From a virus, in IMG/VR virus record IMGVR_UViG_3300035670_000145, positions 1 through 64,000 of that record: a stretch of 64,000 nt of DNA; one strand, 5' to 3'. Positions 2-51,155 of the stretch are shown piece after piece (positions within the stretch are counted from its first letter, which is position 1; every line of letters starts with the position of its first letter). The translations under genes were made by a program, and so were the position numbers. A model generated the notes under the pieces. That model was not told where the DNA came from and did not search any database. It saw nothing but the letters and a program-made list of their open reading frames with translations.

Positions 2-1717
2 TTCAACTCTTGTTTCACCAATTGCCTGATCAACAACCAAATTACGCCTGCCAACAAGAGACCCACTGCTTGTAAGATTATCCGTGGACTGTACTTGCAA
101 AAGGCCTGCGGGCCCAGTAGTGCCAATACCAATCCGATCAGTGGAAGCGTCAACGAAGAACAAGTTGGCGTTGGTGTCACCCTCGATGCGGAAGTCGTAA
201 TTTGCGCCACCGTCGTTGAACACCACTTCACTGGTGCCAAACTCAACGCGCTCAGTACTGTTAGTTGAGATGGCTACTTGGTCTGCGCCAGGGCTGTAGA
301 TGCCGGTGTTGGTGTCGCCGGTGAAGGTGATCGTCGGGGCGCCAGCGGTGCCAGTGCCAGTGCTGACAAGGCCGGTGGTAGCAACAGTCTGGCTGCCGAA
401 GTCCGGGCTGATCTTGGTGCCAGCGATGGCGGCCGAGGCGTTGACGTCGGCGTTGACGATCACGCCGCTGCTGATGGCGGCAGTGCCAGTGCTGCCGATG
501 GTGATGTCGCCGCTGACCTTGCCGAAGGCGTAGTCGGTGATGCGAGTGGCTGCTGCTTTGCGGTTGGTGCCAGCACCGCCATCATCGACGATGAACAGGT
601 CAGCATCAGCCAGGGCAGCGCCGATGTCGGTGCCGCCGTCGATGTTCAGCGCCGACAGCGAAACTTTATCGGCTGTGGCGATGGTGGCCAGTTTGGTGTC
701 TACGATGGCAGCGCTGGCATTGATGTCGGCGTTGACGATGGTATCGTCAAGAATCATCGTGCTAGTAACAGTGCCCGTATCGCCTACTGTTACGACATTG
801 TTGCCGCTTTTAGTCAAAGCGCCAGTCACTGCAACGCTACTATCAAAAACGGCTGCGCCTGTGACATCTAGAGTGCCAGGAATGTCAATATTGCTTGCCC
901 ATTCGACGCCAGTGCCAGCAGCGTCTGTCTGTAGCAATTGCCGTGCCGCACCATCGGCCAGCTTGCTCACTGCAATTTCGGCAGAAGCAGAAATATCAGT
1001 ATTGACAATAGTGCTGTCAAGAATCATCGTGCTGGTGACAGTGCCAGTATCACCAGTGGTAATGATCGTGCCAGTCGTGTCGGGCAGCGTGATCGTACGA
1101 TCAGCAGTTGGATCAGTAACGGCAATGGTGGTTTCAAAACCATCGTCACTACTACCCTCGAAAGAAAGACTTCCCGCAGGGCCAATTTCTAAATTGCCCG
1201 TAACTCGACCGCCTGTTTTAGGAAGTGCTGCGTCAGCAAGATCGTAAGCGCTCTTAACAGCCGTAGATGAAGCAATGGTGGTCGAACTAGTGGTACTGGT
1301 GCTATCGCTAACTTTACTTTGCAGGCCAGAGGGCGTAACTGCACGCACTGCATCGGTGCCTGTCTGTGTTTCGGCGGCAGTAGCCAGCTCAACAAGTCCA
1401 GCGGTGGTCTCAGTGCCTGAAGGCGTCAGGTTATAGAAAGTACTCCCTGTGTAATATTTCAAGCCATGAGTGGTGGTGCTATTGTCCACCCACATTTCAC
1501 CAATAGAGTTTCCTGCGCTTCCTGCCGGCACAGCATTAGGAGCCGCGCTACCCACATGCGCCGGCCCCAGTTTCACGACACTACCTGCGCTGTCCTTGAT
1601 AAAAACGCCTGGCGTTCCAGATGCAGTATTAATAGCAATTTGTCCGTCTGCCATTCCCGATGCGGCGGGACGCTTGTCGGCAGTGGAAGAGCGTAGATGC
1701 TTAAGAATGGAAGGCAT
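2..1717 (-). CDS. Tail fibre protein, 3'-truncated at window edge (not in ORF track)
   Basis: Manual translation from ATG 1717: MPSILKHLRSSTADKRP...GLVELATAAET...FEGSSDDGFETTIAVTDPTADRTITLPD...GDTNTGIYSPGADQVAIST...DRIGIGT; open to position 2; motifs typical of cyanophage fibres. Confidence 0.85.
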   Translation of the reverse strand, partial: MPSILKHLRSSTADKRPAASGMADGQIAINTASGTPGVFIKDSAGSVVKLGPAHVGSAAPNAVPAGSAGNSIGEMWVDNSTTTHGLKYYTGSTFYNLTPSGTETTAGLVELATAAETQTGTDAVRAVTPSGLQSKVSDSTSTTSSTTIASSTAVKSAYDLADAALPKTGGRVTGNLEIGPAGSLSFEGSSDDGFETTIAVTDPTADRTITLPDTTGTIITTGDTGTVTSTMILDSTIVNTDISASAEIAVSKLADGAARQLLQTDAAGTGVEWASNIDIPGTLDVTGAAVFDSSVAVTGALTKSGNNVVTVGDTGTVTSTMILDDTIVNADINASAAIVDTKLATIATADKVSLSALNIDGGTDIGAALADADLFIVDDGGAGTNRKAAATRITDYAFGKVSGDITIGSTGTAAISSGVIVNADVNASAAIAGTKISPDFGSQTVATTGLVSTGTGTAGAPTITFTGDTNTGIYSPGADQVAISTNSTERVEFGTSEVVFNDGGANYDFRIEGDTNANLFFVDASTDRIGIGTTGPAGLLQVQSTDNLTSSGSLVGRRNLVVDQAIGETRVE

Positions 1718-35760: not shown

Positions 35761-35830
35761 GGGCTCCTCCAGGAATCGAACCCGGCATTCCAGGCTATCT
35801 GCCTGACGTGTAAACCAACACCAAGGAGCA
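35761..35830 (-). tRNA. Degenerate tRNA-like element (anticodon position GAT, Ile-like)
   Basis: Acceptor GCTCCT/AGGAGC; D-arm GTGT/ACAC; anticodon stem TCAGG/CCTGG with loop CAGATAG; T-arm CCGGG-TTCGATT-CCTGG; A33 and 1:72 mismatch are non-canonical. Confidence 0.65.
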
Positions 35831-35831
35831 A

Positions 35832-35947
35832 GTGACCCCCAGGTTTGAGCATCGTTGAGAGGCTTAGGGGGTGTTAAACGATGGAGCAAGCGTGAGGGTC
35901 ATCCGGGATTTGCCCCCAGTGACGCACAGAGGCTTGCCCGCCGTCGC
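35832..35947 (-). ncRNA. manA-like structured RNA motif
   Basis: GCGACGG..GGGCAAGC/GCTTGCTC stem; CATCGTT/AACGATG crossing ACCCCC/GGGGGT (pseudoknot); ends GGGTCACT abutting a tRNA; extended -10 TGcTATAGT upstream; family recalled from memory. Confidence 0.6.
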
Positions 35948-46720: not shown

Positions 46721-46858
46721 TCAGCGCCGTTGATCACAAATGCCGGCCAGCATTTCGCCCACGTGGGCATGGGCAGCACGAAGCTGGTCAAAGGCTTGAT
46801 CGCGCTCCTTGCGGGCCTGGTAGTAGGCATCAGGGCCCTGAGGGTAGAAGTCGCGGCC
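46721..46858 (-). pseudogene. Orphaned 3' half of the 47379-47636 gene
   Basis: Translates GRDFYPQGPDAYYQARKERDQAFDQLRAAHAHVGEMLAGICDQRR*; no start codon. Confidence 0.85.
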
Positions 46859-47343
46859 TATATGTGTTGCCATATTTTGCGTAAAACAATTTGACTTATC
46901 AACGGCTGTGTTACATTAAATTTTCTCGCCAAAGTATTCGTCGATTCACCACCCGCCGCGTACAATTCTCTTATTTTTAGCACTTCTTTTTCTGTTAATT
47001 TTGCCTTGCAATTTCTTTCACCTTTGGCGCTAGCAAAGATACGTCTTCCTCTTTCGACCATGTCATTGTAATTATCTTGGTCCGTGCCAAGTTCCAAGTG
47101 AAAAGGATTACAGCAAGAAGGGTTGTCACACTTATGGCGCACCAGCATGCCAGTTGGTATTTCTCCAAAGGCAAATTCCCATGCTGCGCGGTGAGCCAGC
47201 ATCTGTCTTTTGTTGACCGTGATTCTTCCATATCCAGACTTGAGTCTTGACTTGGACTTCCATTCCCAGCAAAGATCTACCGGCGCTTCGGTAACGCTTC
47301 CCCAAAGGCGCTGCCATGCCGGCACTTTATTCCATTGTGTCAT
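46858..47343 (-). CDS. HNH homing endonuclease with C-terminal HTH
   Basis: CWEW, GYG, AHR, VRHKCDNPSCCNPFHL..GT..DN, AKLTE. Confidence 0.9.
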   Translation of the reverse strand: MTQWNKVPAWQRLWGSVTEAPVDLCWEWKSKSRLKSGYGRITVNKRQMLAHRAAWEFAFGEIPTGMLVRHKCDNPSCCNPFHLELGTDQDNYNDMVERGRRIFASAKGERNCKAKLTEKEVLKIRELYAAGGESTNTLARKFNVTQPLISQIVLRKIWQHI

Positions 47344-49098: not shown

Positions 49099-49377
49099 TC
49101 AGAACACCAGCTCTTTGCCATTGGCCTTGATGCTCACCACGCGCTCGCAATCAAACGAGCGCCAGGCACCTTGTCCTTCGTTGCGGGCGATGGAGAAATC
49201 ACGACAGCGGATGATGCTCACCTTGCGAGAAGGAGTGCCAGTGCCCTTAATTTCTTTGGTGTCGCGAGGGTTAAACTGCAGCTTGCGCACGGTGCCATCG
49301 GCTTTTATGAACTGCACGCTGACGATGCTGCTGCCAGCTTCAAAGATGAATTTCTTGATGAAGGAGGTTTTGTCCAT
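49099..49377 (-). CDS. WYL/SH3-like beta-barrel protein
   Basis: V.F.K.DGTVR...D......WRSF. Confidence 0.65.
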   Translation of the reverse strand: MDKTSFIKKFIFEAGSSIVSVQFIKADGTVRKLQFNPRDTKEIKGTGTPSRKVSIIRCRDFSIARNEGQGAWRSFDCERVVSIKANGKELVF

Positions 49378-49411
49378 GGGAGAGGAGGAAGTGGGCTCGC
49401 GCCCTTGATGA

Positions 49412-49642
49412 CTATGATTGCTGGTCTGAGGCCTTTTGTGAAGCCCTTCGGGCATTAGCGTTGCTTATGGCCTTGTGCATGTCCTTTTCGGCATTGCGCA
49501 GGGCGCGATCATCGCTTACGCTCTGTGGCGCCACGAACGTGGCCCCGTTTGGATGCTTGAAAACGAAGTGGCGCTTGGTGCGGGCGAGAATGAAGCCTAG
49601 GCTTGTGGCCATGGCGACAATGCGCTTGTTTGCTTCTTTCAT
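49412..49642 (-). CDS. HicA-like protein
   Basis: GF...R.KRH.VFKHPNG......SD.RA.RN. Confidence 0.6.
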   Translation of the reverse strand: MKEANKRIVAMATSLGFILARTKRHFVFKHPNGATFVAPQSVSDDRALRNAEKDMHKAISNANARRASQKASDQQS

Positions 49643-49936: not shown

Positions 49937-50299
49937 TCATGCCCTGGCGTAGCAGAGCCGCGCAACTCCTTGTGAGGGATTGGCCACGCGAGCAAAAGCA
50001 CCGTAGGAAAGATCAAGAATGCGATCGCCATACCAAGGGCCTCGGTCGGTCACCCTCACCACCACTGACTTTCCATTGCGGGGATTGACGATGCGCAGGC
50101 GGGTGCCGAGGGGGAGCGATGGAGAAGCAACGGTGAGGCCGTAGGCATCGAAACGGCTACCATCAGCAGCTCTCTGGCCGTCGTAGCCATCTCCAATGCC
50201 ATAGTGCGAAACCAAGCCGCACGACGATCCAGCCTCCGCAGCGAATGGCACCAAAGCACCAAGGGCGACGGAAGCAGCAGAGAGAAAACGAAAAAGCAT
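49937..50299 (-). CDS. rlpA: RlpA-like lytic transglycosylase (DPBB domain)
   Basis: Signal peptide; S.YG...A.G..F...LPLGT...VRVTDRGP...ILDLS. Confidence 0.85.
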   Translation of the reverse strand: MLFRFLSAASVALGALVPFAAEAGSSCGLVSHYGIGDGYDGQRAADGSRFDAYGLTVASPSLPLGTRLRIVNPRNGKSVVVRVTDRGPWYGDRILDLSYGAFARVANPSQGVARLCYARA

Positions 50300-50412
50300 C
50301 AGGAAGAGAAAGTAAGTAGCAGGGACCAGGGAGTCGCCTCCTGGCAGCCCTTACTGTACCAAAGTCGTCAAGCCTTTGTGCCGGGCGACAGTGAAGGTGC
50401 TATGCTTTGCAA

Positions 50413-50570
50413 GCTTGAGTTGGTCCTGAGCGAAAGCTCCGTCGTTGACGCCGTAAGGGTGGACGCTTCAGAACAGTGGGTGACTTCGCGAGAACCACCA
50501 AGGCAATGCATGGGCCTGTAGGGCACTGTTCCCCTTTGTTGAGGGACCATGGAGCATCGGAAGCTCAAGC
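50413..50570 (+). ncRNA. Candidate ~160-nt multi-stem ncRNA
   Basis: Extended -10 TGcTATGCT at 50398-50406; closing stem GCTTGAGTT/AGCTCAAGC; GGTCCT/GGGACC; GAACAGTG/CACTGTTC; GNRA loops; terminator follows. Confidence 0.7.
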
Positions 50571-50579
50571 AGCGGGAAG

Positions 50580-50603
50580 GGGGAGCGAAAGCTCCCCTTT
50601 TCT
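50580..50603 (+). terminator. Terminator of candidate ncRNA
   Basis: GGGGAGC-GAAA-GCTCCCC-TTTTCT. Confidence 0.75.
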
Positions 50604-50822
50604 ATTGCTTTGCAGGAGCAATAGGTGTTTTATCCGGCAGTGATAATTGCACTAAAAAGCGCCCCTTAATGGCGCTGTTGATTGCTGCTAGTCCAGGACG
50701 TATCGCCTGGTATGGGCTCCATACCAAATTCCCAATCGTCATAGTCAGGAGAGTTGCGCAGAGCCGCCTTTTCTTGCATTGAAAGGCCGCCTTTTCCTGC
50801 ATTGGAAAGACGGCCCTCTTGT

Positions 50823-51155
50823 TCAGAACTGGTATGGTTCGCTGCTGATTGCCACTGCATAAGCTTCAAGGTAAGCCATGAGATCATCTTCGGACGGAGC
50901 ATCAGTTTGAATTTCATCGTGCTGTTGCTTGTGCTTTGAGAGAGCTCCTTTGAGGCTGAAATAGAGCCTTTCCATCACAAGACGGTTGGCCATGTTTTCC
51001 TCGCGAAGCATGGTCTCTTCCAATGTAGTGAGCCATTCTTCAAGGTCTTTAATGCGGAAGCTCCATGCAACGACAGGGTGGTTGCCGTTCATCACCAAAG
51101 AATTGCTCTTGGTGAAAGCAGAGGTGCCAAGCGAGTCGCGGTAGATGGTTGCCAT
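50823..51155 (-). CDS. Hypothetical protein
   Basis: ATG with pyrimidine-rich leader; TTGACG upstream. Confidence 0.65.
   Translation of the reverse strand: MATIYRDSLGTSAFTKSNSLVMNGNHPVVAWSFRIKDLEEWLTTLEETMLREENMANRLVMERLYFSLKGALSKHKQQHDEIQTDAPSEDDLMAYLEAYAVAISSEPYQF

Follow-up and report, generated by a model that had tools for sequence, protein, structure and literature searches.

The window analysed here is a 64,000-nucleotide stretch of viral DNA, positions 1 to 64,000 of IMG/VR record IMGVR_UViG_3300035670_000145, a source record of 73.8 kb that IMG/VR rates as complete. The window phage is a siphovirus that encodes a tape-measure protein, a portal, a head protease and a large terminase, and its portal is 68% identical to that of the Synechococcus phage S-CBS4. 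A 366-bp gap between two minus-strand genes, one for a DPBB/RlpA-like protein and the other a small ORF, holds a complete RNA gene on the plus strand (50398-50603), which lies opposite both flanking genes, as an earlier note made from the sequence alone had stated. The gene is composed of an extended -10 promoter, a folded core of 162 nt and a strong intrinsic terminator; covariance model R2 detects one copy of it in the window phage.

The extended -10 promoter TGcTATGCT (50398..50406, plus strand) is recognized from its sequence and follows the family consensus GTGnTATGMT, for which a -35 element is not needed. This element stands at constant spacing before the closing stem P1 in all 65 of 65 homologues, and its position would place the transcription start at about 50411-50413. 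The structured core (50411..50572, plus strand) is GC-rich, scores 197 and 158 bits with covariance models R1 and R2, respectively, and measures 159-195 nt in relatives. Because these core lengths follow no 3-nt period, a conserved reading frame is excluded, in agreement with the earlier note, which had found no credible ORF. The intrinsic terminator (50574..50603, plus strand; terminator scan) has a GC-rich stem of 13 pairs that is capped by a GAAA loop and followed by a U-tract. A terminator with compensatory changes in its stem follows every homologue, and a CUUUUCUUUUG tract lies 3-10 nt 3' of P1 in each of them. In the window, the RNA is followed by two terminator hairpins, the second of which, CTATTGCT...AGCAATAG and then TGTTTTAT (50601..50625, plus strand; terminator scan), is not kept across the wider family and is possibly a back-up terminator of the window lineage. 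Promoter, core and terminator are conserved together as one unit in every homologue, which bears out the proposal that this is a self-contained structured RNA. The plus strand of the RNA region folds at -84.5 kcal/mol (z -2.9), better than shuffled sequences, and the minus strand is unremarkable against shuffles (z -1.5).

The DPBB/RlpA-like gene (49937..50299, minus strand) encodes a protein of 120 aa that matches Pfam DPBB_1 at 7.6e-18 and is divergent from the RNA in the window, as it is in 58 of 63 distinct loci. Its predicted promoter contains the -10-like element TACAGT (50358-50353, minus strand), the predicted 5' end of its mRNA carries the GCGA-capped hairpin CCAGGAG-GCGA-CUCCCUGG (50344-50326, minus strand), and the terminator scan places a terminator behind it (49915-49894, minus strand). 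In the window, this gene appears to be a transcription unit of its own. On the other side, a small protein gene recognized by ORF clustering (50666..50917, minus strand; motif DYDDWxxGxEPIPGDxSW) is convergent with the RNA and has its own terminator in the same scan (50676-50658, minus strand).

In S-CBS4-like phages, a gene for a 55-aa protein with the family motif YDPRNExDYDxxxYGxEPIPGDxxW (for instance at 1086-1253, minus strand, of contig L138, and gp092 of S-CBS4) always adjoins the RNA, its orientation being flipped in one lineage. The protein belongs to no Pfam or PHROG family and has no look-alike in the Atlas. This small gene is co-oriented with the RNA and begins 20-80 nt past its terminator in 38 of 51 loci, and the same holds for each of the 44 close relatives of the protein; in 13 loci, among them the window, it is encoded on the opposite strand and is convergent with the RNA. 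The spacer between the RNA terminator and the small gene contains -10-like elements (TATGCT, TAGACT or a repeated TATACA) that are weak matches to the consensus. In this spacer, contigs L311 (2410-2500) and L322 (2426-2500) and their relatives have either a sequence of about 18 nt, (C)TATACAAGAYCAGCCGAT, present once or as two direct copies, or a TAGACT box; these elements may act as promoter or operator for the small gene. The C-terminal motif of the 55-aa protein is also found beside nrdB in cyanomyoviruses (S-RIM8 and S-RIM2), where the RNA is absent. A dedicated pair of RNA and 55-aa protein was considered and rejected: the synteny is strong, yet the protein motif exists in these cyanomyoviruses without the RNA.

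Homologues of the RNA were reached by several routes. With the DPBB protein as an anchor, 80 viral loci were collected, 11 of which contain the RNA according to nhmmer. In each of these 11, it lies upstream of the DPBB gene and is encoded on the other strand, with BLASTN identities of about 70-97%. A search motif derived from a MAFFT alignment, GCCGYRAGGGTG-N(80-110)-ATCGGARG, retrieved 75 contigs from IMG/VR, 65 of which were accepted by a five-sequence covariance model (E 1e-43 to 6e-5). A further 17 contigs came through the small neighbouring protein, a route independent of the motif. By covariance model, the family comprises at least 80 IMG/VR phage contigs with more than 50 distinct sequences. 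The cultured Synechococcus siphovirus S-CBS4 also carries the RNA (NC_016766.1, about 64,537-64,731, complement; 97 bits with model R2), within an unannotated 416-bp gap that extends from gp093, the DPBB gene annotated as 'lipoprotein precursor', to gp092.

Model R2 found no copy in 151 genomes sampled across Cyanobacteria. The window RNA has no BLASTN match among 50,697 phage records and 72,556 plasmids, and BLASTN of the S-CBS4 copy found only itself. The motif scan of 185,579 species genomes produced at least 120 matches on bacterial contigs, a number near chance, for which the estimated expectation is about 270 in 596 Gb. Among the bacterial matches listed, the covariance model gave good scores only to L189 (JAIYDG010000211.1) and L257 (NYTN01000042.1), which carry the RNA at full score. 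They are short MAG contigs of 9.3 and 20.5 kb, the former assigned to a Bacteroidetes MAG and the latter to a Rhodobiaceae MAG. A weaker match of 26 bits, L204, was rejected because Px and P2 are missing from it. L257 and the RNA-bearing IMG/VR contig L133 are both 20,518 bp long. The two MAG contigs are probably cyanophage contigs mis-binned into bacterial genomes.

The core contains 10 helices, all described here on the plus strand. P1, a closing stem of 9 bp (50413..50421 with 50562-50570), leads into a three-way junction with the arms Px and P5; Px closes a compact four-way junction holding the hairpins P2, P3 and P4, and P5 encloses the two-hairpin domain P6-P8 together with the variable hairpin P9. 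Both-side changes are found at 8 of the 9 P1 pairs, and the U50420-G50563 wobble within this stem is almost invariant in the pattern-selected set but U-A in five relatives found without the search pattern. Px (GUCC/GGAC, 50423..50426 with 50461-50464) covaries at 3 of 4 pairs: C-G is replaced with U-A in 9 of 21 sequences, U-A with C-G in 4, and G-C with C-G or U-A, giving variants such as GUUC/GAAC (9 of 21 sequences) and GCCC/GGGC. These changes can be read in a structure-blind MAFFT alignment, where L009 has GUUUC/GAAAC and L008 has GCCC/GGGC. The P2 hairpin GAGC-GAAA-GCUC (50428..50439) covaries at all 4 pairs and carries an 8-nt loop, CKUAAYNR, instead of GAAA in most relatives. P3, CGUC-GUU-GACG with a triloop (50440..50450), covaries at 3 of 4 pairs and is extended to 6-8 bp in relatives, with UUCG or GCAA loops. 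P4 is a 2-bp hairpin, CC-GUAA-GG (50451-58), inside the block GCCG-NRA-GG-N-UGG (50450..50462), which is nearly invariant in the conservation table; its loop is GNRA throughout (GUAA, GUGA, GCGA or GCAA).

Px and P5 are separated by zero unpaired bases, and P5 (50465..50470 with 50550-50555) covaries at 6 of 6 pairs. The P6 domain (50471..50531) is built on an 8-bp stem, GAACAGUG/CACUGUUC (50471-78/50524-31), with covariation at all 8 P6 pairs and also in P7 and P8. P7 (50479-82/96-99 and 50485-87/92-94) is capped by a GCGA loop, and P8 (50502-04/14-16) has a 9-nt loop, AAUGCAUGG, in which GCAUGG is common in the family but not universal, one sub-lineage having GUCAUUC. P9 (50532..50545) varies in sequence and length and is followed by an A-rich joiner of 3-4 nt; the equivalent segment forms a hairpin in 51 of 52 distinct homologues despite their differing sequences. 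Finally, P5 is joined to P1 by the invariant single strand J5/1, AUCGGA (50556..50561). The earlier note had placed the extended -10 element, the 9-bp stem, GAGC-GAAA-GCUC, the 8-bp stem with its two hairpins and the terminator correctly. Two of its helices have to be redrawn: GGUCCU/GGGACC is complementary in the window but not conserved, since GGUCC (50422-26) pairs with GGAC (50461-64) and not with 50543-48, and the CGUC/GACG stem described as enclosing GUAA is in fact two adjacent hairpins, P3 with the GUU triloop and P4 with GUAA.

The evidence for this fold comes from 52 distinct sequences with a median pairwise identity of 56%. Because the alignment was fitted by a covariance model, the pairing counts are biased towards the model structure, with which about 96% of pair cells are standard pairs, compared with 37-47% after displacement of the 3' partners by 1-3 columns. 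Compensatory, both-side changes occur at 42 of 47 pairs, and none of 500 column shuffles matches the observed pairing values. Two observations speak for a real covariation signal: each of the top 26 column pairs by mutual information belongs to the model, and the structure-blind MAFFT alignment agrees, RNAalifold already recovering 25 compensatory pairs from it. The collection of homologues shows a fold far beyond chance. A search for pseudoknots by mutual information gained only one more P8 pair. An additional helix P1b (CC/GG) and two extra P5 pairs, which appear in the RNAalifold drawing, were rejected, as they have no covariation and are broken where Px compensates. G-U pairs occupy 253 cells and A-C combinations 6, which identifies the RNA as the plus strand and substantiates the earlier reading that G-U pairs favour this strand.

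Sequences selected by a motif are unfit to judge whether that motif is invariant, so the members found via neighbouring proteins were checked. AUCGGA is unchanged in all members, also in the 17 contigs whose retrieval did not depend on this sequence. In the pattern-independent members, GCCG-NRA-GG and the U-G after it are likewise kept, with G50459 varying to A or U. The invariant bases (AUCGGA, GCCG-NRA-GG, U-G and CCU) are grouped around the two junctions, which is where a binding pocket or an active site would be expected.

Comparison with databases agrees with the earlier note that the RNA can be assigned to no family. At gathering scores, Rfam 15 (4227 models) matches only an abiF RNA at 35835-35871 in the whole window. 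When the cut-off is relaxed to E ≤ 10, the RNA region yields only terminator-like fragments and nothing for the core, and in 16 homologue loci the only hits are to ctRNA_p42d; they fall on the terminator hairpin, and their scores of 21-27 bits are short of the 50-bit cut-off. The sole tRNA or tmRNA called by ARAGORN in the window is a tRNA-Ile at 35761-35829. As for a retron-type RT gene, no plus-strand ORF of more than 77 aa exists within 600 nt downstream of the RNA; with a DPBB protein and a 55-aa protein as its conserved neighbours, the RNA does not have the gene layout of a retron or RT-associated ncRNA. Resemblances to the T-box sequence AGGGUGG, to RNase P J11/12, to domain 5 of group II introns and to the GGAA loop of SRP RNA count as no more than leads, since a model match supports none of them. 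A literature search returned no RNA described in this gap of S-CBS4 or in cyanosiphoviruses. The best reading of these results is a new RNA family specific to S-CBS4-like cyanosiphoviruses, in which the novelty claimed is that of family and fold, and mechanism is no part of the claim.

Phages are known to carry orphan stand-alone structured RNAs, such as the stable RNAs C and D of phage T4. Short promoter-to-terminator phage RNAs, including the lambda 6S RNA from pR', arise as by-products of antitermination control, and tertiary-type structure is little conserved in them. The window RNA resembles lambda 6S in its predicted short transcript, constitutive-type promoter, strong terminator and location in a phage regulatory region; it differs in that the fold itself is conserved in the family and no long operon lies downstream. 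Orphan phage RNAs such as ROOL and GOLLD (PMC12286853) and the members of the csRNA catalogue (PMC10690425) are alike in having a conserved covarying fold, an independent unit and no assigned function, although the window RNA is much smaller than ROOL or GOLLD and, compared with curated Rfam families, has no match in sequence or structure. The 2023 catalogue mined the same collection, IMG/VR, and lists 8,495 unnamed candidate RNAs, among which the window RNA may be included (PMC10690425).

The favoured explanation, held with moderate confidence, is that of a folded non-coding RNA that acts in trans and, through its junction core, binds a protein or a small ligand. Host RNA polymerase would start at the extended -10 promoter and stop at the intrinsic terminator, releasing a discrete transcript of about 190 nt. 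In the fold that the covariation shows, P1 opens to the three-way junction with the arms Px and P5, and the pattern of conservation suggests that the junction core serves as a binding pocket for the protein or ligand. The RNA would act as a folded molecule, neither by base-pairing with a target nor as a leader of the downstream gene. Action in trans rather than in cis is suggested because the RNA is fully conserved in the 13 loci that have no co-oriented gene downstream, and because the spacer before the small gene contains a -10-like element of its own.

The counter-point to action in trans is the arrangement of the 44 close protein relatives, in all of which the RNA lies directly upstream of the small gene on the same strand with a terminator between, the classic riboswitch or attenuator layout. 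The main rival, in which the RNA is a leader that acts in cis on the 55-aa gene as a riboswitch or as an attenuator that binds a protein, with a ligand setting terminator read-through into the ORF, would account for the order of promoter, core, terminator, RBS and ORF on one strand in these relatives and in 38 of 51 loci. It would also suit the aptamer-like invariant junction core and the CC and GG runs that permit alternative pairings around Px and J5/1. Terminating riboswitches, such as the glutamine riboswitch of glnA in cyanobacteria and cyanophages, likewise have a P1-closed multi-helix domain with invariant junction bases, a terminator right after P1 and, often, a co-oriented downstream gene, and the 10 helices and junction-centred invariant bases of the window RNA make up a putative ligand-binding-type core closed by P1. 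The window RNA differs from them in matching no Rfam riboswitch and in preceding a gene for a 55-aa protein instead of a metabolic or transport gene. A same-strand downstream gene, moreover, is found in 38 of 51 loci and not in essentially all members, the other 13 keeping the RNA without it; in the window lineage the ORF is inverted, read-through would produce antisense transcription into it, and the sign of regulation would be reversed. The terminator is long and perfect, begins 3-10 nt past P1 without overlapping it, and inspection of the segments between P1 and terminator revealed no conserved antiterminator; a pyrimidine run in P9 resembles the 3' arm of the terminator in some members only. 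Together with the -10-like elements TATGCT, TAGACT and TATACA in the spacer and the cyanomyoviruses that have the same protein motif without the RNA, these features render a cis-acting leader unlikely. It is possible, albeit doubtful, that the RNA represents a new class, be it a catalytic one, as a ribozyme, or a free-standing aptamer that binds a small molecule, and that cyanosiphoviruses make it early and in large amounts. An aptamer of this kind could be an RNA 'sponge' for a host metabolite or signalling nucleotide, or a metabolite-sensing gate towards the adjacent small gene. A new class of ribozyme in particular, self-cleaving or acting on another RNA with the invariant junction nucleotides as its active site, would fit the multi-junction architecture with several GNRA-type loops, the few absolutely conserved unpaired bases (AUCGGA and GG-N-UG) beside stacked helices, and the fact that self-cleaving ribozymes are common in phage DNA. 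It is nonetheless improbable: no known ribozyme model matches at E ≤ 10, neither a tandem or repeat context nor the signature of a processing site is visible, and cleavage is not needed for release because the ends of the RNA are set by promoter and terminator.

Assembly of the RNA into larger structures has also been considered, namely a scaffold that forms dimers or rings through loop-loop contacts and would serve in virion assembly or build a cage. Two self-complementary tetramers, UGCA and CAUG, are present in the P8 loop in most of the family, and ornate phage-linked RNAs form homo-oligomers (PMC12286853). The phi29 pRNA (RF00044), in turn, is alike in being an early promoter-driven RNA of about 170 nt with a three-way junction and with its 5' and 3' ends paired in a closing helix. 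However, the pRNA model in Rfam does not match, the window phage is a siphovirus with a large terminase and not a phi29-like podovirus, and the family does not conserve the complementarity between loops of different molecules by which pRNA is defined, a whole sub-lineage having the P8 loop GUCAUUC without UGCA or CAUG. At about 160 nt, the RNA is also far below the size of ROOL or GOLLD. With a normal large terminase and portal and a P8 loop that is not conserved, a pRNA-like ring is unlikely, and the scaffold reading as a whole is very improbable; the packaging role, which the earlier note had listed as speculative beside a ribozyme, a protein sponge and an anti-defence RNA, is weakened on the same grounds, the terminase being ordinary and the sole self-complementary loop not being conserved family-wide. 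Least probable is an antisense or decoy RNA that pairs with a phage or host mRNA or mimics a host RNA, for example the RNA antitoxin of a defence system. Such a role could be imagined because the RNA is transcribed against the early gene run and because the same phage has a stand-alone abiF antitoxin-type RNA. Yet in contrast to cis-antisense RNAs (ctRNA, lambda OOP, P1 c4 and P22 sar), it overlaps no opposite target and has no conserved complementarity: the neighbouring genes have their own terminators, a promoter-like site belonging to the DPBB gene lies between it and the RNA, and sites complementary to the loops are not enriched in the phage genome (12 against 16.8 expected and 6 against 12.9), the RNA's own site being the only one with 0 mismatches. 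An antisense role is thus unlikely and, for phage targets, largely refuted. Mimicry is opposed by the lack of a homologue in the 151 cyanobacterial genomes, by the finding that L189 and L257, both short MAG contigs, are the only good ones among the species-genome matches listed, and by the single copy without tandem-repeat organization. With the cis, antisense, mimicry and ring readings disfavoured, the trans-acting folded RNA is the explanation preferred here.

Complex multi-junction RNAs with invariant junction bases are mostly ribozymes, riboswitches or the cores of RNA-protein machines, and for this reason the new family is a direct lead to new RNA biochemistry. It is tractable, being well sampled, short enough for in vitro work and backed by compensatory change in nearly every helix, and S-CBS4 with its host Synechococcus sp. 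CB0101 is a cultured system that carries it. For the phages of globally important picocyanobacteria, the family is also a further candidate early-infection factor.

Several further features were observed elsewhere in the window. The abiF RNA (Rfam RF03085; 35835-35871, minus strand) scores 55.7 bits against a 37-bit cut-off and lies 5 nt from the tRNA-Ile(GAT) gene, the two together occupying 35761-35871 (minus strand). Its flanking ORFs encode a metallophosphoesterase and endonuclease VII, with no adjacent AbiF/Abi_2 toxin gene, and it may serve the phage as an antitoxin decoy that counters AbiF defence of the host. An ORF for an HNH_3 homing endonuclease (46858-47343, minus strand; Pfam 5.7e-15) is located within the early region. 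Two genes from the RNA, a 118-aa early protein (49099-49455, minus strand) has a weak, below-cut-off match to WYL_2, an Sm-like SH3 barrel (E 0.004), and is a possible nucleic-acid binder.
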